Positions 6,201 to 48,889 are shown, counted from the first letter of the stretch. The stretch is DNA of 64,000 nucleotides from Gammaproteobacteria bacterium (GCA_020027215.1 JAHRAO010000031.1:8603-72602); one strand, 5' to 3'. The notes: generated by a model from the sequence alone, not told the origin. Made by a program: numbers and translations.

Positions 6201-6506
6201 TTGACGTGGTTGTCCCCATACAGTTTGGTGATGAGCCTTGCATTGAGGCACATCGCTGCTGTTGATCTCATCCCTGCGGCTAGTAACCAAATTGATCATC
6301 TCGCTGCGGCGAACTATATTGATTTAACGGCAATTTATTCACTGTATGATAAGTATGAATTTCGCGTAGGGTTTAATAATTTATTAGATGAAAACCCACC
6401 CTATCGCGGGAATCCACCGACGAATGCTAGTAATGGCAATACTTACTCTCAAATATATGATGCGCGCGGACGGTATGTATTTTTTGGATTTCGCTTGAAT
6501 ATGTAG
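3234..6506 (+). CDS. TonB-dependent outer-membrane receptor (1090 aa)
   Basis: GTG start preceded by a GGGGGAG SD. Signal peptide ends ...SAVSA/QDDDDDEG. Plug-region motifs EEVLVTGSRI and LLTGGASATYGSDALAGVVNFI are present. A long beta-barrel region ends YVFFGFRLNM. Confidence 0.9.
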   Translation: MNIFNVFSIRKFISLTSSIGLAIAAMLFLLSLSSAVSAQDDDDDEGAEVEEVLVTGSRIPQKSNLIAPSPITQVNADEFLYTGVTEVEDLLNDLPITQGDNDNTANNGAVGISSVDLRALGRDRTLTLLNGRRITRGSSKQAGGGADLNTIPHFLIKRVELLTGGASATYGSDALAGVVNFILDEEFKGFKVDIQRSFYNHENTDILHPQLNARNFAIPESTVNDGYTSALSLAFGVKTDKGHMALYGMYRDVDPIYHADRDHSACALSSNNSSCGGSSTIPQTRITDFGSLEAAIRFPGTITRVAQIANYDSAVHGASSTLNATYVTSANLSVLNEPGAVAAGTPVVAGFDWYVPAPAAGASSNNQFDRRAGTVLFNFAPRNIFQRPGKRSILGGYGHYDFNDHVTGYAEVNYMNLRSLSQIAPSGNFFETDNLFCGNPLLSEQQFQTICGRYGLTKNDFFQSLQGREVTALFVERTSSPTMNPRPNITTQVTVTGRPTINIGRRNLEGGERQEDLSYASLRAVFGVRGDFGTAWSYDAFANFSRTDLTNIYLNDISITRINRSLDVINTTRVATATDGSTSVQTFIACRSATSVAGAPPVDANCVPWNVFTNNGNRLAATSTGGVTQAAIDYLILPLYEKGETTLSQITAHIVGDLGEYGIALPWADTGISFSVGYERVAQSLEHLPDSNYISGDGSGQGGPTVPVSGSLFSDEMFFEAHIPIIENASFADALNLDIGYRTGSYSTDQDVNSSKLALSWVIRENYKVRASVQQAIRHAHARELFAPQGIQLINATDPCAGSNPGRTEAECMKTGLMPGQYGLVAASPAGQYNRLNGGNPNLRPETSDTFSYGFVLTPLDGLSVSLDYYDINIEETIGRVGFSSIISQCIENDRFCNLIQRGSGGTLWLGNDQVVDTNQNVGTFSTSGFDLNFEYLFGIGSAGKMRASLVANFLQSYETMFLGDLTECVGAFSTSCGVPNPEMAYNARLTWLSPYSLVMSLALRHIAAVDLIPAASNQIDHLAAANYIDLTAIYSLYDKYEFRVGFNNLLDENPPYRGNPPTNASNGNTYSQIYDARGRYVFFGFRLNM

Positions 6507-7157: not shown

Positions 7158-7873
7158 TCCCCTTAAAGAAGGATGCAAAAAATTATTGCACACTTCTCAT
7201 GGTGTGATGCCCGCGGTGTTATGTGGGCATGGACATATTTAATTCTGTTTTCTTTTCTCTCCTGTCCCGTTCAAATATGATGTGCCGATATAGAAGAAAC
7301 CTATTTGAAGTGTTGAAAGCGCAGGTGGGTCGAATGCCAATCGGCGGCAAATGAACGCACTATAGATGATAATGGCGTGATGTGGGGGAATATCTTTTAT
7401 AGAAATAATTGAGCACTGGCTTTAATATGCAACTCTCTTTGCACAAGCGTTTGAGGAATATCGCCAGCCATTGCGACATTGATGGAAACAAGGGATAAGT
7501 AACGGTGCCGCCTCTCTCCTAAGGGAGGGGGCATCCAACTTTCTGGAATATAGCCTACACTATCACCATAAAATAGTGCATTTAGAAAATCAGCGGATAG
7601 ATGAGACCGTCAACGCATCCGCCCAATTATCTGGCGTGCCACAACTAAAAAATTTCCGCCGCGCATTACATTCTTAAATAAACTCTTCAACCCTGTATGC
7701 TTTATTCTTGCCTTGCCTCGCTTGCCCCGACCCGTTACAGTACTCACGCCTAAAACAGCCAGCGCTGTATGGAACAGCGCCCGCAAGCCCAAAATGGAGC
7801 ATTACTTGTCTTGTGATAATTTTGGGCTTGCGTATCAAGCGAAATACAGGGACGTATTGAGCGTAAAAACAGC

Positions 7874-10800
7874 CTATCTTGGTTGTTTGTTAGGGGCGAT
7901 ACAGCGAATAATAGGGGATTGGGTCGTTTTGCCGTAATCCCAAATGCGATTATTCGTTGCCTTTTCGCTATTTTCAATGATCCTATTGCGATTGGTATCG
8001 CAATATTGAGACGTTGGATCATTACTGTGTCCATTATTCCATCTCGTTTCGGTATCGGTGAGTGCTTTAATTTGTGTAAAAGTCCTGCGTTGGTTTTGCC
8101 CGTAGCGTCTAGCATTCGATATATCACGCCCGCCATATTCTTCTTGTGATACAAAATAATAGTCGGTTTTATTACTGTAATCTGCGTTCTCTACTAAGTA
8201 TATAAACCCATAGCTGCGGTTAAAGATAGAACCAGGCGCACCACTATTATCGCCATCATGGGCAATGCTTGTCCAGATACTTCTGGCATTACCGCTAGTA
8301 ATATATCCTCCGGCACCACCTCTCCGGCTTCCTGCAGTGGTGTTATGGGTGGAGATAGCATAGGCATTTTGAATGGTTCCGTTTGCTTGGCCACCAACTA
8401 ACCCACCTATAAACCTTTGCGAGGCACTAGGGTAGATAATGATCATGCGCGCCCACCCATTTTGGAGGCGGCCGTTAGCCATGTGCCCGATAAGTCCGCC
8501 CGCCGCGTTTGTTTGGTCTAACGTGTGTTCAATAGAGATACGGGCACTGCTATATACGGCACTCACCCAACTATTGCTATGAGTCATTTCTCCAGCAATG
8601 CCACCAATGTATTGTCCATTGGTCAACCTCACTTCTACTTCGTTGCCGATATGTATCAGGGTGGAATTGTCAATTTTGCCGATCAATCCCCCTACGGGGC
8701 TTCGTCCAGTTATTGTCGTTGTGCTAAATACGGATTGAACAAATATATCTTTTATAGTGCTGTTGCGCGCATCGCCTATCAGTGCGCCAACATGGTTTCC
8801 TCCGCGCACCCTTTCTACTGTGAGAGTCAAACTGCTTATATCTGCACCATCAGTGGCACCGAATAGACCCACGTAATTTGTTGTTGTCGTATCAATGTTT
8901 AAATTATTGATAACATAGCCATTGCCTCTGAATATACTCCTAAAGGGAGTACTATCATTGCCAATAGGTATCCAATTGTCACTGAGCGTAATATCGCCAC
9001 TCAATTCATACCCTGTGCATTTGGGAATCGGACACCCCGAAGTGCCTAATGGAGTGGATGTTTGTATATTGCCGTCATCTATTCCATTGCCGTCTAGATC
9101 ATCGCGAATACTTTCCAGTCCTGATGCGTCGCTGATATCAATCAGGCCATCACCATCTATATCCACCGCCATCATTGGCGTGGCGCTAACTTGTACACCC
9201 ATTGATTGCGTACTGGGTGCATAAATAGTGCGTACAGTAAAGGTATATTCTATATCGTTGGTGAGCCCAGTGATAGTTGTTGAAGATAGGCGTGATGGCG
9301 TAATTTGTAACCGCACAGGTTGCGCTAAACCACCCGCTGGAGTCCAAGTGATGACTGCAGTGTTTGGATTGACTTGGTAGTGTATGCCAGGGTTTTCCCA
9401 TTGGAGGGAAACGCGGCGCTCTCCTATTGCTGCTTGTAAATTTAATACCTCTGGCTGAATGGGTGTTTGGGGTTGTAGATCAATGCGTAGGCAGTTCAAT
9501 GCTGGACGATGAGCATCTGTGCCGTAAAGCCATACCGCATTATGTGACACCTGTTCTATTGTTTCTATTCTTCCGCTGGCATCGTTATCGCAGTAAATGG
9601 ATAATAAATCATCGCCGCCTGCATTCACTTCTAAGGTTCCATCATTATCCCAATCAAAACCCGCACTCCAATTAGTATATTTTTTTTCATCCGTCGTTTG
9701 ACCTGATAGCGAATCATTGCGTAACGCCCGCAATTCGTTATCGCTCAGCCCGATTGCTTGAGGATCATTAGGGTTTGCTCCATTATAATAATTCCGTCCA
9801 CGCATAATCGGTTGAGTGGGGCTCTCAGCATAGCGGCCGTAGAAACCACGCCCGCGATTCTGATGCACGCGGCCAAACACCCATACATTTCTTATAATGG
9901 TGTTATCTTGATCTGCGCTCGTTCGCCATGCTTCGCCCAAGGCGCCACCAAACCCCGTGAGAATGATATTACATTCAGGACAGCGGATATCAACGTTTGC
10001 CCATGCATTTTGCATTACGCCATTGAGTAGACTACCCACTAATCCCCCTGCACGAGCAGGAACATTGGTAGAACCAAAAAGCCTACCGCGAATATGGACT
10101 TCACCTCTCGCCCATACCTGTTCGGTCACTCCTTCATTTTGCTGACCGATAATTAGTCCAATGTAAGGGGGGGGAATACCCGACGTACTATCCCGTCCTA
10201 AATATACATTTGCATCAACATAAACCTGGCTAATATAACTGCGGTCGGCGTAGCCGACCGCCCCACCGGTAAATCGTGCGGGGTTGGAAGATGGAAGACC
10301 TGATATTTGGTTCGGCCCCTGTACTGTCACGGTACTACTGCTGAGTGTCAAGCGAGAATCTCTCAAACGACCGACAATGCCTCCGACTTCTCCTCCGTAT
10401 ATCGCATCACTGGTCGCAGATTTTCGTGCTTCGCCCGTCACTTCATAAGTGGAATGATCATTATCGCCAACCACAGTGAGTTGAGTAAGGGTACTGTGCA
10501 GTGCTTGACCAACAATGGCTCCTGTACATTCTTGTCCAGTGATATTCGGTTGGTGCACTACTACATTGCGAATAATGCTATTCCTCACCACGCCGAATAA
10601 GCCGATATTATCCACCAGTTCCCTCCCGCGACAATCTGAGGCTCCGCTGACAGTAAGCTCACCTGTCGCAACAGTGATCATCAAACCGCTAATAGTGTAG
10701 CCATTGCCATCAAAAATGGCGGTAAAGGGATTACTGTTTGTCCCGACTTTCATCCACTCTCCCTGCAAAGCGATGTCCGCTCCTAATTCGTAACCCATAC

Positions 10801-11935
10801 AACCACCGCTTGGACAACCAGTGTTGGTGCTACTCGTACCGTTGTGCATATGTGATCCGTCGAGATCATTGCGCATATAAGATAAGTCTGTGGCGTTGCA
10901 TATTTCAATTAACCTATCGTCATCTATATCAATATCGCTTGTTTCTCCCACCGGCAAAGGTAAAGTTCTTGTTACCGTGCTCACCCCATCACTCACCGAG
11001 AGTAGGGTTGCATATGACCCTGCTACATTCCCAGCAGTATAAGTTGCGGTGACATTGTTCCCGCTTTGTGTGCTCAATACAATATTGCCTTGAGCAGGTG
11101 TTATGAATGACCATTGTAGGGGTTGGGCATCTGGATCTATAGCAGACAAACTAAAGACGCGCATTCCAGAAAGCGCAATAGGCGTGCAACCATAATTTGG
11201 TGAAATAGTAATGCTTGGCAGGCGGTTTAGGATCATTACATTGATATTAATTGTCGCCGTCTTATCACCATTGGACAAACTGATGGTCAATGAGCTCGCG
11301 CTTTGGGGTGCTACTCCATTGGTGTTATAAGTCAATTGGGTGCTCTGCCCATTAGCTGTAGATAACATGGCGGAACCAGTAGACGGCTGTGTGCTAATCA
11401 TCCATTGAGGGTTAGATAGATTGACCCGCGCATTAAGTGTTAAGTTGATGGTTTCATTAGTAAAAAGCGATACAGTGTGGCTCGTTCCTTGGGTAATTGG
11501 CGGGCGGACATCAACCATCACCCTTACCGGTGACGATGTTTGCGTGCCAGTGGTCACAACAAAGGTAAAACTATCGTTACCGATATAATCATCATTGGCG
11601 CGATAGGATAGTGATAAATTATCTAAATTACCCGTTGCTCCAACGGCGAGTTCTGTGCCATTGGCTATTATGTGCCCGTTAGATGGGGCAAAGGTTAAGC
11701 GATATCCGTGCCCATTCGTGCTGGATAGCATAAACGGCTGCGCACCTAACCATGTGGCGATGAGTTGAGAGGGCAATTCAATGTTAATTGTTACTGTGCC
11801 ACCGCCACCTGTGCCGTTACCGCCGCCGCCACCTGTGCCACCGCCACCTGTGCCGTTACCGCCGCCGCCACCACATGCACCTACAAATAGGGCAATGCAC
11901 AAACTAAATACTATATAAGTTATTCTTGTATTCAT
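7874..11935 (-). CDS. giant surface lipoprotein (1353 aa) with Gly-rich linker, Ig-like domains, FN3 domain and two GLUG-motif repeat modules
   Basis: Lipobox LFVGAC at aa 17-21, followed by a (G4-5 N/T G T) linker. Three ~95-aa Ig-like segments come next. Two paralogous modules span aa ~334-816 and ~924-1346. Each module has an Asp-rich Ca-binding-like stretch (DIDIDDD / DIDGDGLIDISD), then CP..C.GYEL, then repeated GG[LI][VI]G GLUG-type motifs. An FN3-like segment (VSLQWENP...YTFTVRTIY) lies between the modules. Confidence 0.85.
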   Translation of the reverse strand: MNTRITYIVFSLCIALFVGACGGGGGNGTGGGGTGGGGGNGTGGGGTVTINIELPSQLIATWLGAQPFMLSSTNGHGYRLTFAPSNGHIIANGTELAVGATGNLDNLSLSYRANDDYIGNDSFTFVVTTGTQTSSPVRVMVDVRPPITQGTSHTVSLFTNETINLTLNARVNLSNPQWMISTQPSTGSAMLSTANGQSTQLTYNTNGVAPQSASSLTISLSNGDKTATININVMILNRLPSITISPNYGCTPIALSGMRVFSLSAIDPDAQPLQWSFITPAQGNIVLSTQSGNNVTATYTAGNVAGSYATLLSVSDGVSTVTRTLPLPVGETSDIDIDDDRLIEICNATDLSYMRNDLDGSHMHNGTSSTNTGCPSGGCMGYELGADIALQGEWMKVGTNSNPFTAIFDGNGYTISGLMITVATGELTVSGASDCRGRELVDNIGLFGVVRNSIIRNVVVHQPNITGQECTGAIVGQALHSTLTQLTVVGDNDHSTYEVTGEARKSATSDAIYGGEVGGIVGRLRDSRLTLSSSTVTVQGPNQISGLPSSNPARFTGGAVGYADRSYISQVYVDANVYLGRDSTSGIPPPYIGLIIGQQNEGVTEQVWARGEVHIRGRLFGSTNVPARAGGLVGSLLNGVMQNAWANVDIRCPECNIILTGFGGALGEAWRTSADQDNTIIRNVWVFGRVHQNRGRGFYGRYAESPTQPIMRGRNYYNGANPNDPQAIGLSDNELRALRNDSLSGQTTDEKKYTNWSAGFDWDNDGTLEVNAGGDDLLSIYCDNDASGRIETIEQVSHNAVWLYGTDAHRPALNCLRIDLQPQTPIQPEVLNLQAAIGERRVSLQWENPGIHYQVNPNTAVITWTPAGGLAQPVRLQITPSRLSSTTITGLTNDIEYTFTVRTIYAPSTQSMGVQVSATPMMAVDIDGDGLIDISDASGLESIRDDLDGNGIDDGNIQTSTPLGTSGCPIPKCTGYELSGDITLSDNWIPIGNDSTPFRSIFRGNGYVINNLNIDTTTTNYVGLFGATDGADISSLTLTVERVRGGNHVGALIGDARNSTIKDIFVQSVFSTTTITGRSPVGGLIGKIDNSTLIHIGNEVEVRLTNGQYIGGIAGEMTHSNSWVSAVYSSARISIEHTLDQTNAAGGLIGHMANGRLQNGWARMIIIYPSASQRFIGGLVGGQANGTIQNAYAISTHNTTAGSRRGGAGGYITSGNARSIWTSIAHDGDNSGAPGSIFNRSYGFIYLVENADYSNKTDYYFVSQEEYGGRDISNARRYGQNQRRTFTQIKALTDTETRWNNGHSNDPTSQYCDTNRNRIIENSEKATNNRIWDYGKTTQSPIIRCIAPNKQPR
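11794..11871. repeat. perfect 39-bp tandem duplication (2 copies) inside the Gly-rich linker of the giant lipoprotein gene
   Basis: tgtgccaccgccacctgtgccgttaccgccgccgccacc occurs at 11794-11832 and again at 11833-11871. It encodes a duplicated 13-aa Gly-rich unit. Confidence 0.9.
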
Positions 11936-12350: not shown

Positions 12351-12881
12351 TTACAATTGCCAATGGCTTAACTTTGTGCGTAATTTTATTTTACCACGAA
12401 AAATGTGCGATTTTACTGTCCCTATGGGTATCCCTAATATTTGTGCAATTTCACTTTGATCGTACTCGCGATGGAGGTGTAGATGAAGCACCATCCGTTG
12501 AGTAAGAGGGAAGGTTGATAAAAGGTGAGCGACTTGTCGGTGTATGTCATAGTCAATCATGTCGTCAGAAGACGATGATGGCATAGATTCCAATATGGGC
12601 TCGTTGACTGTGGCGATCTTTTGCTTGCGATAATAATCGTTCAGACAGTTACATGCAATGCGGTAGAGCCATGTTTGCAGATTGGACTTGTGATTAAAAC
12701 GTGCTAAATGTTGCAACATTTTTAAGAAAGTATCTTGCAAAATATCATCAGTCAATTGTGCATTCCATCCCGTCATTTGCAAAACCGAGTATCGCAAAGG
12801 CGATTGATAATGCTGAACTAAGGCGGTAAATGCATCAGGATCATCTACGGCTTTGCTCACTAGGGATGGAATGTCTTCCAT
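12351..12881 (-). CDS. ECF-family RNA polymerase sigma factor (sigma-70 group 4)
   Basis: Region 2 motif: DILQDTFLKMLQHLARF...TWLYRIACNCLNDYYRK. Region 4 motif: QRMVLHLHLHREYDQSEIAQILGIPIGTVKSHIFRGKIKLR. Confidence 0.9.
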   Translation of the reverse strand: MEDIPSLVSKAVDDPDAFTALVQHYQSPLRYSVLQMTGWNAQLTDDILQDTFLKMLQHLARFNHKSNLQTWLYRIACNCLNDYYRKQKIATVNEPILESMPSSSSDDMIDYDIHRQVAHLLSTFPLTQRMVLHLHLHREYDQSEIAQILGIPIGTVKSHIFRGKIKLRTKLSHWQL

Positions 12882-12905
12882 TCGCTATTAGGCGCAGCTG
12901 ATACG

Positions 12906-13646
12906 CTACCCGTTTTTTTGTCCTAATTTCCAATGAACCAAATGGGCAATCCCTATAAATAAAGGAATCAACCCTAATGCACCCCAGTTGATACTGAATA
13001 GCATGCTTAGTGCGATGATCAATGCTAAACCCAAACCTATATTCACCATTCCTCTATGCAGAGGCGACCATACAGTGCGTGGCTCTAAATTGCGAATGGT
13101 TTCTTCAGAAAGCGGTTGCCCGCTGTCAATTAATTTGGCAATGATTTCACTGCGCATCTTGTATTTGCGATAACTAAAATAGAGCACAATCCCCAAAATA
13201 GCTATCGGCGTGCCAAATGAAAAGAGAATAGCCCATATAGGGATCAATAAATCCTCCCAATCCACGCCCGTGCCCATATCAATGGAATCCGTATTGCGCA
13301 GTGCGATAATATTTTTTGCGTGCGCAGTCTTTATTGCCTCATGCACCTGTGCTTTTTGTTCATCGTCCAGAGGGATATCGTCAATAATAGTGTGTAGATG
13401 ATCTAAGGCGGTGCGCAGGGAACCTGTATCTTTATTCACAATGCCTTCCAGCAATGCGGATATTTCCGCTTCGGTGTCATCGCTCAGATTCAGATCGCTG
13501 AAATCTACTTGAATACTACCCATATCCCCGTCAATGTTGTATGAAAACGCTGCACTGTTTTCATACTCTGTATTGGCATCTGCGAATACTAAGTTGTTAT
13601 AGTAGATTGTGGCGAGCATACAAGCCAATAACATTAATATTTTCAT
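12906..13646 (-). CDS. secreted/membrane protein, first gene of the ECF sigma operon
   Basis: 246-aa ORF with an AGGAGA SD and a signal peptide (MKILMLLACMLATIY...FADA). An acidic periplasmic region is followed by 3-4 C-terminal TM segments. Confidence 0.75.
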   Translation of the reverse strand: MKILMLLACMLATIYYNNLVFADANTEYENSAAFSYNIDGDMGSIQVDFSDLNLSDDTEAEISALLEGIVNKDTGSLRTALDHLHTIIDDIPLDDEQKAQVHEAIKTAHAKNIIALRNTDSIDMGTGVDWEDLLIPIWAILFSFGTPIAILGIVLYFSYRKYKMRSEIIAKLIDSGQPLSEETIRNLEPRTVWSPLHRGMVNIGLGLALIIALSMLFSINWGALGLIPLFIGIAHLVHWKLGQKNG

Positions 13647-40696: not shown

Positions 40697-40725
40697 TTGA
40701 CATCCCAGCAATAGATGTATACAAT
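40697..40725 (+). promoter_or_regulatory. sigma-70 promoter candidate for tsaB-uppP-trpS and downstream genes
   Basis: TTGACA (40697-40702), 17-nt spacer, TACAAT (40720-40725), ~115 nt upstream of the tsaB ATG. Confidence 0.5.
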
Positions 40726-41550: not shown

Positions 41551-42353
41551 ATGCTATAGATTTGTCGTGGTGGCAGGTGATTGTCTTGTCTGTGGTGCAA
41601 GGCATTACCGAATTTCTTCCCATCTCCAGTTCAGCGCATCTCATTCTCGTCGGGCAATTCCTCGGTTGGAATGATCAAGGATTAGCGTTTGATGTTGCGG
41701 TACATCTAGGCACTATGATTGCGGTAGTACTATTTTTTCGCCGCGACCTTTATTCAATGAGTATTGCGTGGGGACAATCCATTATCCAACGCCACCAATC
41801 TGCACAGAGCCAATTGGTGTGGTTCATAATGTTGGCAACCCTTCCGGCTGTCGCCATTGGTTTTGCCGTGCACGATTGGGTGGCGAGTGAGTTGCGCACT
41901 ATGTCGGTTATTGGGCTGGCAAATGTCGTTTTTGCCCTCCTACTTTATGGTGCGGATCGGTTTGGCGGTCGGGTGCGGGATATACAACAGATGACTGTGT
42001 ATTCCGCACTATTTATCGGGTTTATGCAGGCATTAGCACTCATTCCAGGAACATCGCGTGCTGGTATTGTCATGACCGCGGCATTACTTTTGGGTTTTAC
42101 GCGTTCTGCCTCAACGCGTTGTGCGTTATTATTATCTATACCCATTATCGGTGCGGCAAGCGCTCTCAATTTGGTGAAATTAATACAATCGTCAGCGCCC
42201 ACCCCATGGATAATGATTGCGCTGGCGATGCTATTGACTGCGATAATAGCGTATGTGTGTATTCATTTACTGTTGTGTTGGGTGGAAAAGATTGGTATGT
42301 TGCCTTTTGTATGCTATAGATTATTATTGGGGCTAGTTCTGTTATGGCCATAA
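41532..42353 (+). CDS. uppP: undecaprenyl-diphosphate phosphatase
   Basis: VVQGITEFLPISSSAHL...ALIPGTSRAG, with eight hydrophobic segments. The start is ATG 41532 or GTG 41547, overlapping the tsaB end. Confidence 0.9.
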   Translation: MAKTLVNAIDLSWWQVIVLSVVQGITEFLPISSSAHLILVGQFLGWNDQGLAFDVAVHLGTMIAVVLFFRRDLYSMSIAWGQSIIQRHQSAQSQLVWFIMLATLPAVAIGFAVHDWVASELRTMSVIGLANVVFALLLYGADRFGGRVRDIQQMTVYSALFIGFMQALALIPGTSRAGIVMTAALLLGFTRSASTRCALLLSIPIIGAASALNLVKLIQSSAPTPWIMIALAMLLTAIIAYVCIHLLLCWVEKIGMLPFVCYRLLLGLVLLWP

Positions 42354-42373
42354 ACGAGGGAAAAGCGCGTTCA

Positions 42374-43387
42374 ATGCGCGTGTTGACGGGTATCGCTACA
42401 ACTGGCGCGCCTCATTTAGGAAACTATGCCGGCGCCATTCGTCCGGCAATTGATATGAGTCTACACGCAGAAGTGCGCTCATTTTATTTTTTAGCCGATT
42501 ATCATGCTATGGTCAAAATCCATGATGCACAAGCGATGCAACAGGCATTACTTGAAGTTGCGGCGAGTTGGTTAGCATTGGGGTTGGATACCGACCGCTC
42601 TATTTTTTACCGCCAATCCGATATTCCAGAAATTATGGAGCTCAATTGGCTATTATTGTGTGTGACTCCGAAAGGATTACTCAATCGCGCGCATGCTTAC
42701 AAAGCAATTGTTGCCGATAATAGCAAACGCACAAAACAGCGCGATATTGATTATGCGGTGACTATGGGGTTATATGGCTATCCAGTATTGATGGCGGCAG
42801 ATATATTGATGTTTAATGCCGACCGAGTTCCAGTCGGACGCGACCAACTACAGCATTTAGAGATGACCCGTGACATTGCCCAAAATTTTAATCGCTTATA
42901 TGGCGAGGCTTTTGTCCTACCGCAAGCAGAAATTATCGAACAGGTTGCTGTGTTGGCGGGATTAGATGGCAGAAAAATGAGCAAAAGTTATCGCAATACT
43001 ATCCCTCTGTTTGCCGACTGCGATCAATTACGCAAGCTCATTATGAAAATTGAGACCAATTCATTGCCGCCGGGCGCGCCCAAAGACACTGAAAGTTGCA
43101 CTCTCTTTCAAATTTATCGCGCTTTTGCTACTAAAAGTGAAACTGCTGCAATGGCAGCCCGTTACCGTGAAGGTATTGCATGGGGAGAGATGAAAAATGA
43201 ATTGTTTGAATATATTGACGCCACTATTGCCCCATCTCGTATAGAGTATGCTAAATGGAAGGCATCGCCCGATACAATTTACAATATATTAAATAACGGC
43301 GCTCAACGCGCACGTGAAATATCTGTTCCTTTTATGGCGCAGTTACGCACACTCGCAGGTATAGATGGAGGAAAGACCTATGTTTGA
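42374..43387 (+). CDS. trpS: tryptophan--tRNA ligase
   Basis: MRVLTGIATTGAPHLGNYAGAIRP (HIGH-type motif), VPVGRDQLQHLE, and KMSKS in GRKMSKSY. The ATG at 42374 has a GAGGGA SD. The 10-codon N-terminal extension in the track was rejected. Confidence 0.92.
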   Translation: MRVLTGIATTGAPHLGNYAGAIRPAIDMSLHAEVRSFYFLADYHAMVKIHDAQAMQQALLEVAASWLALGLDTDRSIFYRQSDIPEIMELNWLLLCVTPKGLLNRAHAYKAIVADNSKRTKQRDIDYAVTMGLYGYPVLMAADILMFNADRVPVGRDQLQHLEMTRDIAQNFNRLYGEAFVLPQAEIIEQVAVLAGLDGRKMSKSYRNTIPLFADCDQLRKLIMKIETNSLPPGAPKDTESCTLFQIYRAFATKSETAAMAARYREGIAWGEMKNELFEYIDATIAPSRIEYAKWKASPDTIYNILNNGAQRAREISVPFMAQLRTLAGIDGGKTYV

Positions 43388-44336
43388 ATCTAAAGGGCTG
43401 GCAATTTTTTTTACCCTACTCTTCAGTGCAATTTACATGAACCTATTATGGTTATTGGCTGTACCAATATGGTTGGGGATTTTTATTGGCGCCACTTTAG
43501 CATGGCTCCCCGAACGATTTGCACACCGCACTACATATAGTGAGCAATGGTGGTGGCATGTCATTGGCATCATTACCTTACTACTCATCACCGCCGTCAT
43601 CTTATTCACGACGCTTCCCGCATTACTGAATCAACATGATGTATCGTTGGATAAAGTATTGCCGTTATTTATTGCTACGCTGATTTTGTATGTGTATTGT
43701 GTGTATTTAGATAACCAAAAATGGAATGACTCGGTGCACGCACGTCTCACTGCGGGAAAAGAGTTAGCGGTAACTACTTTTCCTTTGTTGCTTACTTTTT
43801 GCACCGCGGTCATCCTGATGTCCAGTGTATTATGGTTCACCTGGTTCCTTCGAACAGAATATCCATCTACCGACTATATTGCCATCAAATTATTAGACCG
43901 CGGCATTATTCCTCCCCTTACCATATTGCTCTTTATTTGGGCGTTACTCTTACTCGTCAATCATTGGTTACGCTTGCGAGATATGCGGCGTTCTTTTATG
44001 ACTTTACTGCGCGCCGTTGAGCGCGAAAAAGATTGGCATTACTACCGTCAAAAAAGCGAAGAATCTTATATGTTACCTTACTATATTGCGTGGGCGATTC
44101 CCATTTTAGGTTTTGTCGGCACGGTATTGGGTATTTCACTCGCTGCCAGCGGCATAGAAAAAATTATCGGCACGCAACAGGGGCTGGGTTCGTTGTCCAG
44201 CAATTTGGGGGAAGCCATTGCACCACTCGGTATTGCTTTTGATACGACTTTAGTGGCATTGTCATTGAGTTTGATATTGACTCTTATTCAAACCCTTTTA
44301 CAACGTTGGGAAGCGGCGATATTTAATGAACCGTAA
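43380..44336 (+). CDS. polytopic membrane protein with C-terminal MotA/TolQ/ExbB-like proton-channel core (component A)
   Basis: ATG at 43380 with a GGAGGA SD 7 nt upstream, 8 nt inside the trpS 3' end. About five extra N-terminal TM segments precede a core with IPILGFVGTVLGISLA and LGIAFDTTLVALSLSLILTLIQ, resembling the MotA_ExbB signature. Confidence 0.75.
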   Translation: MFESKGLAIFFTLLFSAIYMNLLWLLAVPIWLGIFIGATLAWLPERFAHRTTYSEQWWWHVIGIITLLLITAVILFTTLPALLNQHDVSLDKVLPLFIATLILYVYCVYLDNQKWNDSVHARLTAGKELAVTTFPLLLTFCTAVILMSSVLWFTWFLRTEYPSTDYIAIKLLDRGIIPPLTILLFIWALLLLVNHWLRLRDMRRSFMTLLRAVEREKDWHYYRQKSEESYMLPYYIAWAIPILGFVGTVLGISLAASGIEKIIGTQQGLGSLSSNLGEAIAPLGIAFDTTLVALSLSLILTLIQTLLQRWEAAIFNEP

Positions 44337-44871
44337 TTCTGCTGGAACAATTGCTCCACACTCGCCCCGTGGGGGAGGTAAAAAATCCACAGAAAATAAT
44401 GCGCCTATGGTTGAAATTTTTGGCGGATTGTTTGCTTTGATGCTAGTGCTGTTCGTCATCGTTAACCTGCTCTCTGAAGCGGCGGTGCGCGAGCGCATTG
44501 ATAACACGAATGAAGAAGGGCTCTACCGCATCAACTGGGGTGATAGCGGTAGTGGGTATGTTGTTTTGACATTTCCCGCGAATGTGCGCATCATAGAAAA
44601 CAATATGGTAGTAGATAAAGATAACATTTGTGCGGCGAATAGCCCTTTTGTGGAATATGTGCATCACATCTATAACCAGAAAAAGAAGCAAATTGTATTT
44701 GCCATTTTAGAAAATAGTGTGCCGGTGATGCGCCGCGCGCGCGACTGTATTGCCCAGCGTCTGCCGGGACGTTCTCTCACTATTGGCTGGATTATCGCTA
44801 CGCGTGAGTTATTGAAATCCGTGCCATTGAATGATATCCCGCCTTATATTGAAAAAGTTATTACACAATGA
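44326..44871 (+). CDS. ExbD/TolR-like single-TM protein (component B, 181 aa)
   Basis: Overlaps component A by 11 nt. The TM segment APMVEIFGGLFALMLVLFVIVNLL carries an acidic residue at its cytoplasmic end, as in ExbD/TolR. A ~120-aa periplasmic domain follows. Confidence 0.6.
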   Translation: MNRNSAGTIAPHSPRGGGKKSTENNAPMVEIFGGLFALMLVLFVIVNLLSEAAVRERIDNTNEEGLYRINWGDSGSGYVVLTFPANVRIIENNMVVDKDNICAANSPFVEYVHHIYNQKKKQIVFAILENSVPVMRRARDCIAQRLPGRSLTIGWIIATRELLKSVPLNDIPPYIEKVITQ

Positions 44872-46556
44872 CTCGCAGCGCACTCCCTCCTTTTGCCGGA
44901 ATTGCCTTAGCGGATATTCTCGCGAATGGCGTTGCGGTACTCATTTTGTTGGTGATTATTTCTATCAGCGTGAAATATGTGGAGGAGCGCAAACAAATTG
45001 AACAAGTGGACGAAGTGTCTTTAGTTTTGAGTCGCGATTTGGCGGTGTCAATGGTCATGAATAATTTATCGGCGAGTGCACCGGCTTTATTGCACGATTA
45101 CCATCGTTCGCCTTTGGATTTGCAACTTCATCCGGCAATTATGCCGATTTTAGAAATATACTCCGACCATGTGCGCAATTTTTATGACGGAAACACTTGG
45201 CTATCCGATGAATTATTGCTGGCAGATAATCGCTTAGATGAATATCTTTCTCGCTTATCGGCATTGCAAAAACAGCGCATGCGCGTAGATATTTACGATA
45301 TTCAATTGTTTTATATCACTATGTCTATACTCAAAAAACATGCTATCGCCCCCCGCCATTGGCATTTTATGACTGCAAATCAAGCACATGGAAGCAACAC
45401 CGATCATGCCGGTATTAACGATAGATCCAATGGAGTTGCTGCGCGTGGTGCGACATCCGAACAGAGCGGTGAGGCAATGGGCGGATCAAATGAGTCAGAA
45501 GAATGGATTGAAGAGGGAACTGCCGAACACAGTACGTCCGCAGCAGAAAATGGATTAGATTTAGAGCGTTTATATGGTAACGGTAGTGTGCCTTCTTCGG
45601 TAGAAATACTCCCTTCGGGGCAATCGGGTTACCTTCTACCATCCGAAAACCCGCCACCTTTAGGGCAATCGGAACACAGTGTGACTTTTGATGCTCAAAA
45701 ACGACCGCTCCTCAATCGCGCCCAATTTCGTTTAGCAGGTGATTTAGCGACTTTTATACCGGTGAAAGGCGGTGATATAGGGCAACCGCTCCTCTTAGAA
45801 GATGTATTAACGGCTCTATTTGGCTTAATGAATCACGTGCAAGGGCAATTGGATGAGGGATTGTCGCCAACATTTGACTTGTTGCGTTTTCACGATGATT
45901 TGCACACCGCACTGCTGTCTATTCCGCAACAGATCAGCGAATCTGACAAAGAGGTGGTTACAGATTTAGTAAACGCTTATGCTGCTTTGTGGGTAGAAGA
46001 ATCAGATAACCTATTGGATACGGATGAGGCAATCCGTTCCACCGATGGTCGGCGACTATTGCAGGTGCGTGCTAATGATCTCCTTATTACCGCTCGGGTG
46101 ATCAGCCATTCTAGTCACCGGCCATTGTTTTTTTTACCCGCTCCAACAGCAGTAAAACTTGCTTTGGCGCGCTATCCCGGTATAGTAGAAGGGCAAATAT
46201 CACAAGTAGGGCGAGAAAGTTTTATCATCATGCCGACTCTGCAACAAGAAGGATACCGTTGGCGTGCAGTCACTATGGTGTCGGCACAGTTTGATGATTT
46301 TCTTTTTGGTTTACTCTATAGCAATGTAGTGGATACTGCACGGGGATCACTGCAATTACTAATCCCTGCGGATGAAAACCAGGTGCATATTAGCGGTTAC
46401 CCTCTGCACAGTGAATTCCCATCAATAGAAAACCGTGTCGGCAACAGATTGTTCAGTTGGCATATTGCGGTTGCGGTTGTTTTATTGTTCGGCATTGCTG
46501 TGCGTTTCTTTTTGCGCCGTCGAACATGGTTGGTTGTGCAAAGAGCAAGTCAATGA
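44868..46556 (+). CDS. large bitopic protein with ExbD/TolR-like N-terminal TM and ~480-aa periplasmic region (component C, 562 aa)
   Basis: ATGA overlap with component B. The N-terminal TM is FAGIALADILANGVAVLILLVIISI, with Asp in the ExbD-like position. An acidic low-complexity linker (GGSNESEEWIEEGTAEH) and a C-terminal TM (IAVAVVLLFGIAVRFF) are present. Confidence 0.6.
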   Translation: MTRSALPPFAGIALADILANGVAVLILLVIISISVKYVEERKQIEQVDEVSLVLSRDLAVSMVMNNLSASAPALLHDYHRSPLDLQLHPAIMPILEIYSDHVRNFYDGNTWLSDELLLADNRLDEYLSRLSALQKQRMRVDIYDIQLFYITMSILKKHAIAPRHWHFMTANQAHGSNTDHAGINDRSNGVAARGATSEQSGEAMGGSNESEEWIEEGTAEHSTSAAENGLDLERLYGNGSVPSSVEILPSGQSGYLLPSENPPPLGQSEHSVTFDAQKRPLLNRAQFRLAGDLATFIPVKGGDIGQPLLLEDVLTALFGLMNHVQGQLDEGLSPTFDLLRFHDDLHTALLSIPQQISESDKEVVTDLVNAYAALWVEESDNLLDTDEAIRSTDGRRLLQVRANDLLITARVISHSSHRPLFFLPAPTAVKLALARYPGIVEGQISQVGRESFIIMPTLQQEGYRWRAVTMVSAQFDDFLFGLLYSNVVDTARGSLQLLIPADENQVHISGYPLHSEFPSIENRVGNRLFSWHIAVAVVLLFGIAVRFFLRRRTWLVVQRASQ

Positions 46557-48157
46557 ATGCACCTCAGAAAAGAAATATCTCCAATGCCGTTTGGCTGATG
46601 GTGTTGGGGGTGTTGGTCGTGGCATTGCTGACGGTAACTCGTTTGCGTTTGCCGTCTACTGCATTGGATATGATCCTCATCGATAGCGACAATATTACTC
46701 AAGATGTGCGCGCACAGCGTTTTGATGCACTCATTGCCGAGCATGCCAGTGCGCTTAAAAATTGGGCGGATTACAGCGAATCTTTAGCTGTGCGCGATCG
46801 TGCGGTGCAAATATCATCTCTGTGGATGGATCGTTGCGAGGTGACCCAAGGTGATTTTTATCGTTTTGTCAGCTGGGTTGCGCGCCAACCACCGCCCATC
46901 ATGGCACATCTACCGGAGCAACAACCGCGCCATTGGCAGTATCGCAGTAGTTCACATCGTCATCGCATTTCTGGGAGGCTGAGTGCCCCCGCTAATGGCA
47001 TTACTTATTACGATGCGCGCGGTTATTGTCATTTTGCGGGCGGGCGATTACCGACTGCGGAAGAATGGATTGTGGCGGCGTCTCCAAATGGACAATTATA
47101 TCCATGGGGTGATGAATTTAATAGCGCTGCGTGGCCTTACTTGAAACCTCGCTTAAATGCTGCACAAAAATGCCAAACCCACGCGTATGCTCGCTCGCGC
47201 TGGGGAGTGAGTGATATGGCGAATAATGTTGCCGAATGGAGTGAAGGATGGCTCACGGCACAGAATAAACAACCACTAGTGCATGGTGGCGATGGTTATC
47301 GCCAACCGGCAGCGGTGCATGCTTTGAGTATGCTCTACCAATCCCCATCGCCGACATCGCGATCTCCTTATATAGGTTTTCGCTGTGTGTATGACTCCCC
47401 ACCGTCCCCTGCTCCGTGGAGAACAATTCCGCAAACCCAAAGCATTCTCTCTGGAAATTATCAAATTGGGGTGCCCGAGCAATCCATCATGGCGAGTGTG
47501 GTGGCAAATTTGCCGCACTCACAATTGGCACAAGTAAGCCAATTAGTGGAGAGCCAACAGGAAAAAGAGGGCACGAGCGATCGACTCTATTTTAATGTTT
47601 CAGCATGCGAAATTACGCGCCGCCACTACAAATGGTTTCTCCGCGATCCTTTAGTGCATCTTAAATTATACGCCGACAAAACCGAACCACAAGGATGGGA
47701 TTACCATCCGCATGACTGGCAGCGACAATTAACCCACCCCGATTTGCCCGTGACAGGGGTAGATTGGTGGTCGGCGCGCGCTTTTGCGCGCTGGATCGGC
47801 GGGCGATTGCCCTCGGCGGTGGAGTGGAGTGTCATTTACTTGCGCCATCAACTGACCTATCCGTGGGGAAACAAATACGATCCGGCACTGGCGGTCACCG
47901 GCGATAGGAAAGATGCCCTCCCACTACATTGCGGCGATATGGAAAACGATCGGATTGATGGAGTCAAAGATTTAGGAGGCAATGTCTCTGAATGGACAAG
48001 TAGTATTACTCCGCATCATGGCGGTTATGCGATGGTGATTAAAGGGGGGAGCTATTTGCTTCCTGGCAAAGACACCGCGCGCATTGATCATAATCGCTTA
48101 GCCCCCCCATCGTACCGCTCCCCGGGCGTCGGTTTTCGTGTTGTGATTGACCCGTAG
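46553..48157 (+). CDS. membrane-anchored protein with two FGE-sulfatase/SUMF1-family domains (component D, 534 aa)
   Basis: ATGA overlap with component C; the tracked ORF start at 46457 was rejected. Signal anchor VWLMVLGVLVVALLTV. Domain 1: GGRLPTAEEWIVAAS..YPWGDEF..MANNVAEWSEGW..YIGFRCVYD. Domain 2: GGRLPSAVEWSVIY..YPWGNKYD..LGGNVSEWTSS..GVGFRVVID. Confidence 0.8.
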   Translation: MNAPQKRNISNAVWLMVLGVLVVALLTVTRLRLPSTALDMILIDSDNITQDVRAQRFDALIAEHASALKNWADYSESLAVRDRAVQISSLWMDRCEVTQGDFYRFVSWVARQPPPIMAHLPEQQPRHWQYRSSSHRHRISGRLSAPANGITYYDARGYCHFAGGRLPTAEEWIVAASPNGQLYPWGDEFNSAAWPYLKPRLNAAQKCQTHAYARSRWGVSDMANNVAEWSEGWLTAQNKQPLVHGGDGYRQPAAVHALSMLYQSPSPTSRSPYIGFRCVYDSPPSPAPWRTIPQTQSILSGNYQIGVPEQSIMASVVANLPHSQLAQVSQLVESQQEKEGTSDRLYFNVSACEITRRHYKWFLRDPLVHLKLYADKTEPQGWDYHPHDWQRQLTHPDLPVTGVDWWSARAFARWIGGRLPSAVEWSVIYLRHQLTYPWGNKYDPALAVTGDRKDALPLHCGDMENDRIDGVKDLGGNVSEWTSSITPHHGGYAMVIKGGSYLLPGKDTARIDHNRLAPPSYRSPGVGFRVVIDP

Positions 48158-48202: not shown

Positions 48203-48889
48203 CTACAATGAAGTCATTGTTGTGCTGGGTGATGAGGGTAATTTCGCCAGCGAACCTACTTTTTCACGAAGCCCTTTTTGGTACATTTCTTGGCTCGCTT
48301 TTTCTTCACCCATATATTGCAGTAATTGCGCTAATTCGGCATAGACTGTCACAATAGGGTGAAAGCTCAAACTTGATTGCAGATAATCACGCGCTTTTCC
48401 CCACAGATGGTTTTGTAGGCACAGGCGACCTAAACAGAGCAGAACATGCGGGTCTTCGGGGTATTTTTCCAACCATTTTTCCGCTTTGGCTAAGTGTTTT
48501 TTCGGGTGATCTTTTTGCGCTAGACCATACCACTCTAATAGTATGGGCTCTACTTGGTGTTGCATTGTTTTATATACTTGTCGCTCTAAAAGATGGTAGT
48601 TGCCTTGCTCAATTTGTTGTTTAATTTTTTCTAATTGCCGCGCCGATTTATCAACTGTTTTTTTGGCGGTTCGCGGCAATTTTTTGCGATGGATTAAGCG
48701 GGTAATGCCGTAGGTGATTGCGCTAAACAGAAGCGTCCATAGGATAAAAATGATTCCGAGAAACCATAGCCCGCTTTCTACTTGTATCTGGCGATAAACG
48801 ATCAAAACATAACCGGAATCGCGAGCAATGGTATCAACCAACCATGCTAGAGAGGCTAAAATAATGAGCAGGGTAAGCCAAAAACGCAT
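48203..48889 (-). CDS. hemY: HemY-like protein (short form, 228 aa)
   Basis: N-terminal two-TM HemY_N-like region (MRFWLTLLIILASLAWLV..GYVLIVY...VESGLWFLGIIFILW) and TPR-like C-terminus. It follows hemX. Confidence 0.7.
   Translation of the reverse strand: MRFWLTLLIILASLAWLVDTIARDSGYVLIVYRQIQVESGLWFLGIIFILWTLLFSAITYGITRLIHRKKLPRTAKKTVDKSARQLEKIKQQIEQGNYHLLERQVYKTMQHQVEPILLEWYGLAQKDHPKKHLAKAEKWLEKYPEDPHVLLCLGRLCLQNHLWGKARDYLQSSLSFHPIVTVYAELAQLLQYMGEEKASQEMYQKGLREKVGSLAKLPSSPSTTMTSL

Follow-up and report, generated by a model that had tools for sequence, protein, structure and literature searches.

The subject of this analysis is a group of four genes, here called A, B, C and D, within a stretch of 64,000 nucleotides from a Gammaproteobacteria bacterium (GCA_020027215.1 JAHRAO010000031.1:8603-72602). 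This whole stretch is referred to as the window, and positions are counted from its first letter. The four open reading frames (ORFs) are translationally coupled, all lie on the plus strand and span positions 43380-48157. We incline, with modest confidence, to the reading that their products form an inner-membrane machine not described before, powered by the proton-motive force (PMF) and belonging to the MotA/ExbB 5:2 kind. The genes are the following:

43380..44336, plus strand: gene A, divergent MotA/TolQ/ExbB-type channel subunit, 318 amino acids
44326..44871, plus strand: gene B, single-pass protein of an orphan family, 181 amino acids
44868..46556, plus strand: gene C, bitopic protein with a membrane anchor at each end, 562 amino acids
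46553..48157, plus strand: gene D, tandem FGE-fold protein, 534 amino acids counted from the ATGA-coupled ATG

The ATG of gene A at 43380 overlaps the stop codon of trpS (ATGTTTGA) and stands 7 nt behind GGAGGA at 43367-43372; a second possible ATG for this gene lies further upstream, at 43365. Genes A and B overlap by 11 nt (ATGAACCGTAA), and the B/C and C/D junctions are both ATGA, at 44868-44871 and 46553-46556, respectively. An earlier note, made from the sequence alone, had described this chain with its coordinates, overlaps and GGAGGA Shine-Dalgarno sequence, and the ORFs and junction sequences agree with it throughout. In a scan of one genome per species, at least 582 genomes were found to encode a relative of A, and the best 80 of these were inspected. 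By tblastn, the order A-B-C-D on the same strand recurs in about 72 of the 80, as would be expected from the earlier proposal of co-localisation in other genomes; thus, A-D are real genes and not chance ORFs. The exceptions are contig ends and three orphan copies of A (L013, L015 and L067), where an A-like gene occurs without B, C and D. The L013 copy (7494-8663) lies beside unrelated metabolic, CoA-transferase-like genes, and all three may be second copies or remnants. The genes flanking the cassette differ between lineages, with no fifth conserved neighbour in the five contexts in which genes were called. Since the flanks vary while the four genes stay together, it can be concluded that the conserved unit is exactly A-B-C-D.

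Gene A provides the link to known motors. A hydropathy scan predicts about 7-8 transmembrane (TM) segments, namely three of the core and 4-5 extra ones at the N-terminus, in line with the earlier note; the extra helices are poorly conserved. The TolQ-like 3-TM core corresponds to about residues 166-318. The cytoplasmic loop of A measures only ~35 residues, and the chain ends ~12 residues past the last TM segment. As A is nearly devoid of a cytoplasmic domain, any mechanical output must be periplasmic, as in Ton and Tol systems and unlike in flagella and Zorya. The motifs ILGFVGTVLGI and AFDTTLVALSLSL, on which the earlier note had based the superfamily assignment, are present in A and near-invariant in its orthologues. 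In 23 A sequences PILGFxGTVxGIS and PLGIAFDTT are invariant, and hhalign places them on TM2 and TM3 of TolQ/ExbB. In the window they are found at:

44100..44138, plus strand: A residues 241-253, PILGFVGTVLGIS, equivalent to the TolQ/ExbB TM2 channel motif 'GLFGTVWGI' including its conserved Thr; family-invariant, by alignment and hhalign
44223..44249, plus strand: A residues 282-290, PLGIAFDTT, last-TM motif with invariant Asp288, Thr289 and Thr290, comparable to 'APGIAEALIAT' of ExbB/TolQ

We compared A with the Pfam family PF01618 (MotA_ExbB) and obtained 18.3 bits over residues 229-310 (cut-off 22.9), weak matches in 17 of 23 orthologues, and 28.5 bits, above the cut-off, for one orthologue fragment. 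The family profile of A was aligned by hhalign to TolQ/ExbB over residues 166-317, that is, the whole 3-TM core (76%, E 2e-5). When plasmids were searched with A by tblastn, only three matches were returned, all of them annotated as MotA/TolQ/ExbB. The two that were scanned, from Microcystis and Sagittula, both exceeded the Pfam cut-off and were aligned to the A profile at 99% and 98% by hhalign. NCBIfam and PADLOC returned very weak ZorA matches only (PADLOC E of at least 0.014). Judged by the PF01618 matches, the hhalign alignments and the invariant motifs, A does belong to the MotA/TolQ/ExbB superfamily, as had been proposed, though as a divergent member.

Both scanned plasmid matches belong to gene triads. 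On plasmid p1 of Microcystis aeruginosa NIES-2481 (L089, 5569-8950), a MotA-like gene with an FDTT/GTVxG core and a ZorA3-like coiled-coil tail is followed by genes for two small single-pass proteins and then by a DUF559 nuclease gene, in a defence island. On a Sagittula stellata plasmid (L090, 5485-8611), a MotA-like gene with the same core is followed by genes for two small single-pass proteins and then for a TPR protein. These triads may be uncatalogued Zorya-like variants.

The acidic membrane residue expected of a motor partner is found in gene C, whose features are:

44913..44915, plus strand: codon of Asp16 in AL(A/V)DILAN, at the cytoplasmic end of TM1; candidate proton-carrying residue, invariant in 19/19 homologues and 78/78 orthologues
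45111..45368, plus strand: residues 82-167, predicted small alpha/beta periplasmic domain (pLDDT ~90) with invariant R139, D141, Y143 and HWHF164-167 and a TolR/ExbD-like order of strands and helices
45372..45674, plus strand: residues 169-269, low-complexity acidic/Gly-rich linker, variable in length and predicted to be disordered
45675..46427, plus strand: residues 270-520, predicted second periplasmic domain, helical at 310-373 and beta-rich at 397-500, with no significant structural match
46458..46514, plus strand: residues 531-549, predicted C-terminal TM helix followed by an Arg-rich tail, from the model and hydropathy; kept in orthologues

The motif AL(A/V)DILAN is invariant in the 19-homologue alignment, and the 78 orthologues that share Asp16 were taken from genome loci. 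This residue lines up with MotB 'IAYADF' in hhalign and, by eye, with ZorB 'ISYADL'; the TM motif also matches 'ALVDAVTNG' of the third gene of the Sagittula triad (hhalign E 1e-3). Hydropathy gives two TM segments, one at each terminus. In the AlphaFold model, with a mean predicted local distance difference test (pLDDT) score of 69 and domains near 90, a long TM helix spans residues 9-69. With TM helices at both ends, C would be held in the inner membrane at its N- and C-terminus, exposing ~480 residues to the periplasm. Both the length of the periplasmic region and the C-terminal TM had been anticipated in the earlier note.

In other respects C resembles no described family. Pfam, NCBIfam and PADLOC gave no family match for it, and a Pfam scan of its family (n=19) returned scattered chance matches and no PF02472 (ExbD). 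Partner domains known from such motors are absent as well: there is no Pfam match to TonB or TolA in B or C family members, no OmpA-like Pfam match in the window proteins or in B and C family members, and no SHLS/His motif in the TM helices of the B and C family alignments, and hhalign of the C-terminal part of C against TolA gave 0.2%. The cassette thus contains no TonB-, TolA-, Pal- or OmpA-like partner, as had been noted earlier. We also searched the PDB by Foldseek with whole-chain AlphaFold models of B and C, and no match with E < 0.1 was obtained for either protein. For C, TolR (5by4) appeared at rank 8 with a TM-score of 0.47 on the target, which is not significant. Matches of the C profile to troponin T among the PDB sequences were dismissed as compositional, being due to low complexity only.

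According to hydropathy and the AlphaFold model (pLDDT 75), protein B consists of a cytoplasmic tail, one TM segment at ~28-50 and a periplasmic alpha/beta domain at ~68-165. Two Cys of this domain, C102 and C141, are invariant, which is consistent with a periplasmic location. A search of 1.84 billion representative proteins with the B profile gave only 45 clusters at E <= 1e-3; this number is far too small for the B family to include the large ExbD/TolR family. In agreement, PF02472 was found neither in the B family (n=26, scattered chance matches only) nor in five small distant matches of the B profile. NCBIfam, PADLOC and a tblastn search of plasmids gave no match to B, and no sign of paralogy emerged when B was compared by hhalign with each of the two terminal parts of C. 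The residue of B that had been considered a candidate for proton binding is:

44413..44415, plus strand: codon of B Glu30, not conserved

Among 79 orthologues, position 30 of B is Ala in 43, Glu in 34 and Ser in 2. The earlier note had placed an acidic TM residue in both B and C, and had named poor conservation of that residue in orthologues as evidence against its proposal; this is what was found for B, whereas Asp16 of C is conserved without exception. The surrounding B motif, E-x-N-N-A-P-M-x-x-I-F-G-G, nevertheless lines up with E-I-N-x-x-P-h-h-D-V of TolR/ExbD. Among PDB sequences, the B profile matches best in the TM region of ZorB (8qyd_F, E 0.093), with the ZorB Asp falling on a Gly of B. 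Foldseek placed TolR (5by4) at rank 4 and ExbD (8vgd) at rank 19 (TM-score 0.63), both with E 0.3-0.9. It seems that the likeness of B to TolR/ExbD is weak and structural only, and in our interpretation B derives from a MotB/ExbD-type subunit by loss of the obligatory acid. Position 30 of B covaries with position 15 of C (44910-44912), the residue preceding Asp16: across 78 genomes the pairs are Glu-Ala in 34 and Ala-Val in 39, with 5 exceptions. This could reflect a contact between the B and C helices, and is equally explained by a split into two clades.

These properties bear on the possibility that the cassette performs a divergent energy transduction of the Ton/Tol type. A would then be the ExbB/TolQ, B the ExbD/TolR and C a TonB/TolA-like force transducer, crossing the periplasm with its disordered linker towards a target in the outer membrane or cell wall; D would be that target or an adaptor. 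The N-terminus of B, E-N-N-A-P-M-V-E-I-F, is comparable to E-I-N-I-V-P-L-L-D-V of TolR/ExbD and the full lengths are collinear; the linker of C is long, variable and of low complexity, like those of TonB and TolA; and a TonB-dependent receptor is encoded elsewhere in the window. Moreover, new non-TonB transducers acting on TolQR-like motors are known (PMC12204202). However, more than half of the B orthologues have no acidic TM residue, so A and B alone could not conduct protons canonically. The invariant Asp is located in C, which has neither the SHLS/His motif nor a TonB or TolA C-terminal domain, and since its C-terminal TM helix re-anchors it in the inner membrane, C would not be free to reach the outer membrane. 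We thus consider an explanation of this type unlikely.

The fourth protein, D, carries an N-terminal hydrophobic anchor at residues 13-31, its single TM segment by hydropathy, has no lipobox, and contains two stretches of the FGE-sulfatase fold at ~84-279 and ~350-534 (Pfam PF03781, E 1.3e-53), as described in the earlier note. The catalytic, copper-binding Cys pair (CxxxxC after the GGS motif), whose presence that note had left to be checked, is missing from both domains, in the window protein as well as in 74 orthologues. Across the same orthologues, conservation extends to the fold motifs and to four Cys of domain 1. Among solved structures, the closest in sequence is SUMF2/pFGE, a non-catalytic paralogue, and the scores against the equivalog models EgtB, SenA, GldK and GldJ are far under their cut-offs (for GldK, TIGR03525, 45 bits with a cut-off of 350). 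As the catalytic pair is missing, D is a pseudo-FGE. FGE folds are known to serve as ring proteins of the type IX secretion system (T9SS), in the form of PorK/GldK. They also occur as non-enzymatic periplasmic binders, one of which is Tsi3, an FGE-like, periplasmic type VI secretion (T6SS) immunity protein (10.1101/2021.05.21.445229). Given the missing Cys pair and these precedents, D is most plausibly a binding or scaffold module.

One could still suppose that D is an active sulfatase-maturating or other FGE-family enzyme, serving the metabolism of sulfated polysaccharides, and that A-B-C only export or anchor it. The strong match to the FGE-sulfatase Pfam family speaks for this, as does the partial similarity to EgtB, SenA and OvsA, and sponge symbionts, to which the cassette leads below, are rich in sulfatases. 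In view of the Cys pair missing from all 74 orthologues examined, an inactive protein as best solved relative and the equivalog scores, we find it very improbable. In addition, D has no DinB/iron domain of the kind needed by EgtB and OvoA, and no sulfatase gene is a conserved neighbour in the five gene-called contexts.

Most of the 80 inspected records are recognisable as metagenome-assembled genomes (MAGs) of sponge symbionts. This origin was read from taxon names or study codes and verified for part of the records (the Oxydemutatoraceae, for example, lie outside that part), and the association is drawn from the best 80 of at least 582 genomes, so it is not a claim of exclusivity. The sponge-linked carriers include Spongiihabitans, Porisulfidus, Poriferihabitaceae and Azotimanducaceae, Methylococcales symbionts of Iophon and Hymedesmia, and bins from published sponge studies; the sponge origin of carriers is corroborated by PMC12988363, PMC12859430 and PMC12625764. 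Among the 80 are Gamma- and Alphaproteobacteria, Nitrospirales (a complete chromosome among them), Thermodesulfobacteriota, 'Deltaproteobacteria' and Spirochaetales. None of the carriers seen has been cultured, and the cassette is kept in symbiont genomes of 1.7-2.4 Mb. We compared the cassette proteins between phyla, using L045, L053, L061, L070 and L075 as the gammaproteobacterial loci. Those of Nitrospirales (L072, L076) are 72-76% identical to those of the gammaproteobacterial Poriferihabitaceae and Spongiihabitans, and the Thermodesulfobacteriota copy (L068) is 68-71% identical to that of Poriferihabitaceae, whereas different gammaproteobacterial lineages share only ~40% identity. Such identity across phyla, set against ~40% within Gammaproteobacteria, indicates recent horizontal transfer between phyla among sponge symbionts, as far as sequence identities can tell. 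The housekeeping context suggested in the earlier note thus holds for the lineage of the window, but the cassette moves between phyla and its closest matches are mostly sponge symbionts.

In an Azotimanducaceae-like genome of 5.8 Mb (L087, 7351-8763 and 14712-17282), the cassette is flanked by genes for a protein with an eukaryote-like spondin-N domain, a HigB/HTH toxin-antitoxin pair and a DDE transposase, a surrounding that looks mobile.

Horizontal spread in a phage-rich sponge microbiome would also suit an envelope defence module related to Zorya, which would detect or stop phages at entry or, with D acting like Tsi3, counteract toxins that are delivered into the periplasm. Several observations are in keeping with this idea: the nearest annotated relatives of the A core include the Microcystis plasmid protein with its ZorA3-like tail, two small single-pass neighbours and DUF559 nuclease in a defence island; A has weak ZorA matches in PADLOC and the best PDB match of B is ZorB; the cassette has been transferred between phyla, one copy being flanked by HigBA toxin-antitoxin genes and a transposase; and FGE-like proteins can be T6SS immunity proteins (10.1101/2021.05.21.445229). 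On the other hand, A ends ~12 residues past its last TM helix and so has no cytoplasmic tail of the ZorA type, the PADLOC E values are no better than 0.014, and a cytoplasmic effector such as a nuclease or helicase is missing from the cassette, as is a T6SS effector gene from the adjacent sequence. Retention in 1.7-2.4 Mb symbiont genomes, and in this lineage coupling to trpS in a tsaB-uppP-trpS block, are atypical of defence islands. A defensive role therefore appears quite unlikely to us.

The reading that we favour, a PMF-driven machine of the MotA/ExbB 5:2 kind, would work as follows. A would form the ion-conducting ring, presumably a pentamer. The invariant TM Asp of C would couple ion flow to movement, making C the functional equivalent of MotB, ExbD, TolR or ZorB, and C would carry the movement into the periplasm through its TolR-like domain, flexible linker and second domain, while the C-terminal TM re-anchors it. 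B, a second single-pass subunit without an obligatory acid, would sit either inside the ring, as the inactive member of a B:C heterodimer, or at the periphery as an adaptor. D would be the working end, a membrane-tethered tandem pseudo-FGE that is moved, gated or assembled by the motor and that might act on an envelope or host-derived ligand.

Several points weigh against this reading. The A protein of the window itself stays below the Pfam gathering cut-off, and its profile gave no match to ExbB, TolQ or MotA among the PDB sequences. The earlier note had taken B and C for ExbD/TolR-like proteins; of this, only weak Foldseek matches to TolR/ExbD (TM-scores 0.44-0.63, E 0.3-1) can be upheld, with no Pfam ExbD match. 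All Foldseek matches of the B and C models are non-significant (E >= 0.16). In hhalign, B against TolR/ExbD reached 7%, not significant even after a trimmed TolR/ExbD reference had been rebuilt, and the N-terminal part of C showed no significant similarity to TolR/ExbD/MotB (0.2% against TolR/ExbD); the reference alignments were small (7 sequences), which makes these negatives weak, and the same procedure reached only 6% for TolQ against MotA. Furthermore, we know of no characterised precedent for a heterodimer with a single Asp, and for what D does, and for its interaction with the motor, synteny is the sole support.

A more specific, tentative and rather unlikely version would make the cassette a horizontally exchanged module specific to sponge symbiosis. 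Here an asymmetric B:C axle, with one active Asp and one degenerate subunit, would move a lectin-like tandem pseudo-FGE, remodelling or sensing the envelope in response to the host matrix, e.g., sulfated glycans, and thereby aiding the persistence of unrelated symbionts in the sponge mesohyl. If true, 5:2 motors would gain a new functional class through it, and it would at the same time be a molecular determinant shared in an ancient symbiosis of animals and microbes.

The surroundings of the cassette in the window include two further features of the plus strand:

42344..43387, plus strand: trpS (tryptophanyl-tRNA synthetase), whose stop overlaps the start of A; PF00579 is found on the orthologous neighbour in L081, L085 and L088
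40697..40725, plus strand: promoter-like site TTGACA-17-TACAAT upstream of tsaB, 11/12 matches, by consensus match only

Upstream of the cassette, tsaB (40840), uppP (41532) and trpS (42344) overlap one another, and all seven ORFs from tsaB to D overlap or abut. As the only strong promoter-like site found, at 40697-40725, precedes tsaB, tsaB-uppP-trpS-A-B-C-D may constitute one transcription unit starting there. The trpS-ABCD arrangement is shared by the closest relatives; the full tsaB-uppP-trpS-ABCD arrangement recurs, among the contexts examined, only in a 1.7 Mb gammaproteobacterial MAG. On the 3' side, the cassette faces convergent hemY-like, hemX, hemD and hemC genes. The hemY-like ORF (48203-48889, minus strand), downstream of hemX, encodes only 228 amino acids and may be truncated or divergent, typical HemY proteins being longer. 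In four of the five gene-called contexts a Peptidase_M48 gene lies at most 9 kb from the cassette (L081, from 19932; L085, from 20261; L086, 15051-16124; L087, 3728-4435); its position and strand vary, and it could be a coincidence. At some loci (L001, 11225-12155; L032, 9445-10972), C and D or B and C are separated by 0.9-1.5 kb, where lineage-specific inserted genes may lie.

Elsewhere in the window, a TonB-dependent receptor (Plug and beta-barrel) is encoded near an ECF-type sigma factor and a DUF6249 protein (3234-6506, plus strand, and 12351-13646, minus strand), so the organism probably has a conventional Ton system too; no canonical tolQ/exbB or tolR/exbD gene is present in the 64-kb window. 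A 1352-aa ORF (7874-11935, minus strand), whose sole Pfam match is a weak fibronectin type III domain, may encode a large surface or eukaryote-like repeat protein of the kind often noted in host-associated bacteria.

To our knowledge, MotA/ExbB-type 5:2 motors are the only known route by which inner-membrane energy reaches the periplasm and outer membrane in diderm bacteria, and each earlier set of partners (flagella, Ton, Tol, Agl-Glt, Zorya) revealed new biology. With ExbB-ExbD-TonB and TolQ-TolR-TolA, the cassette shares the full 3-TM core of the channel subunit with its GTVxG Thr motif and polar/acidic last TM, single-pass, N-in partners with small alpha/beta periplasmic domains, one of them with a long flexible periplasmic spacer, and a periplasmic output. 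It differs from them in the 4-5 extra N-terminal TM helices and almost absent cytoplasmic domain of A, in that B and C are not detectable members of PF02472 and the Asp is borne by the long subunit and not by the short one, and in having an FGE-fold fourth component and no TonB/TolA C-terminal domain, Pal or TolB.

A single channel gene with two different partners has precedents, as in AglR-AglQ-AglS of Myxococcus. Operons of a TolQ-like gene, a pair of heterologous TolR-like genes and a vWA or novel periplasmic transducer have also been described (PMC12204202). Both resemble the cassette in combining one MotA/TolQ-like gene, two different single-pass TolR/MotB-like genes and a non-canonical periplasmic partner in a non-flagellar, non-Ton setting. 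Here, however, one of the single-pass proteins has no conserved acid, the partner is a tandem pseudo-FGE, and Glt and vWA proteins are absent.

The closest sequence relatives of the A channel core are found in Zorya ZorA-ZorB and in the Microcystis p1 and Sagittula plasmid triads. The triads share with the cassette a MotA-like gene accompanied by two small single-pass genes, and their third-gene motifs ALVDAVTN and FLDIMTN resemble AL(A/V)DILAN of C; the TM region of B is most similar to that of ZorB. Unlike in Zorya, A has no long ZorA tail, B and C have no OmpA-like peptidoglycan-binding domain, and no cytoplasmic effectors occur in the window or in the five gene-called contexts. PADLOC gave no match for B, C or D, and the context of the cassette is housekeeping or symbiont-core and not a defence island.

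The parallel drawn in the earlier note with T9SS and gliding (GldK/PorK-GldL/PorL-GldM/PorM) lies in the joint encoding of a PMF motor, a long, bitopic subunit of the periplasm and a periplasmic protein with the FGE fold, and D indeed has weak partial matches to GldK/PorK. Nonetheless, A is a MotA/ExbB homologue and GldL is not, there is no GldN, the C model has no structural match to GldM/PorM in Foldseek, and D is not a lipoprotein. The carriers seen belong to Pseudomonadota, Nitrospirota, Desulfobacterota and others, none of them to Bacteroidota. No homology to GldL, GldM or GldK was found except for the generic FGE fold; the resemblance is an analogy and not membership. D itself can also be compared with human SUMF2/pFGE and Tsi3: D keeps the structural motifs and disulfide Cys of the fold and not the catalytic Cys pair, it is predicted to be periplasmic, and a binding or scaffold role is probable (10.1101/2021.05.21.445229). 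Unlike these, D is duplicated in tandem and anchored in the membrane, and the partner to which it is genetically locked is a motor, not an effector.

The cassette thus does not qualify as ExbD/TolR (by hidden Markov model), FGE enzyme, T9SS GldKLM, Zorya or TonB/TolA, and, as had been supposed, no named system of this composition was found in the literature, NCBIfam or PADLOC. Literature searches on FGE with ExbB/MotA/TolQ, sponge with TolQ/FGE, COG1262 and PF03781/PF01618 found no description of it. Recent surveys of motor diversity list other new motor-partner combinations (PMC12505986, PMC12204202), and text searches of these two papers found no mention of sulfatase or FGE. The motor class is therefore familiar, and what is new are the partner families, the possible single-Asp axle, the pseudo-FGE output and the association with sponge symbionts across phyla. 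To the known motors the cassette would add one with partner proteins of no described family, a possible asymmetric axle with the conserved Asp on one of two partner subunits only, and an FGE-fold pseudo-enzyme as output. Its mostly sponge-symbiont carriers in several phyla among the best-matching genomes, the signs of transfer and its retention in small genomes make it a concrete candidate for a shared symbiosis factor.

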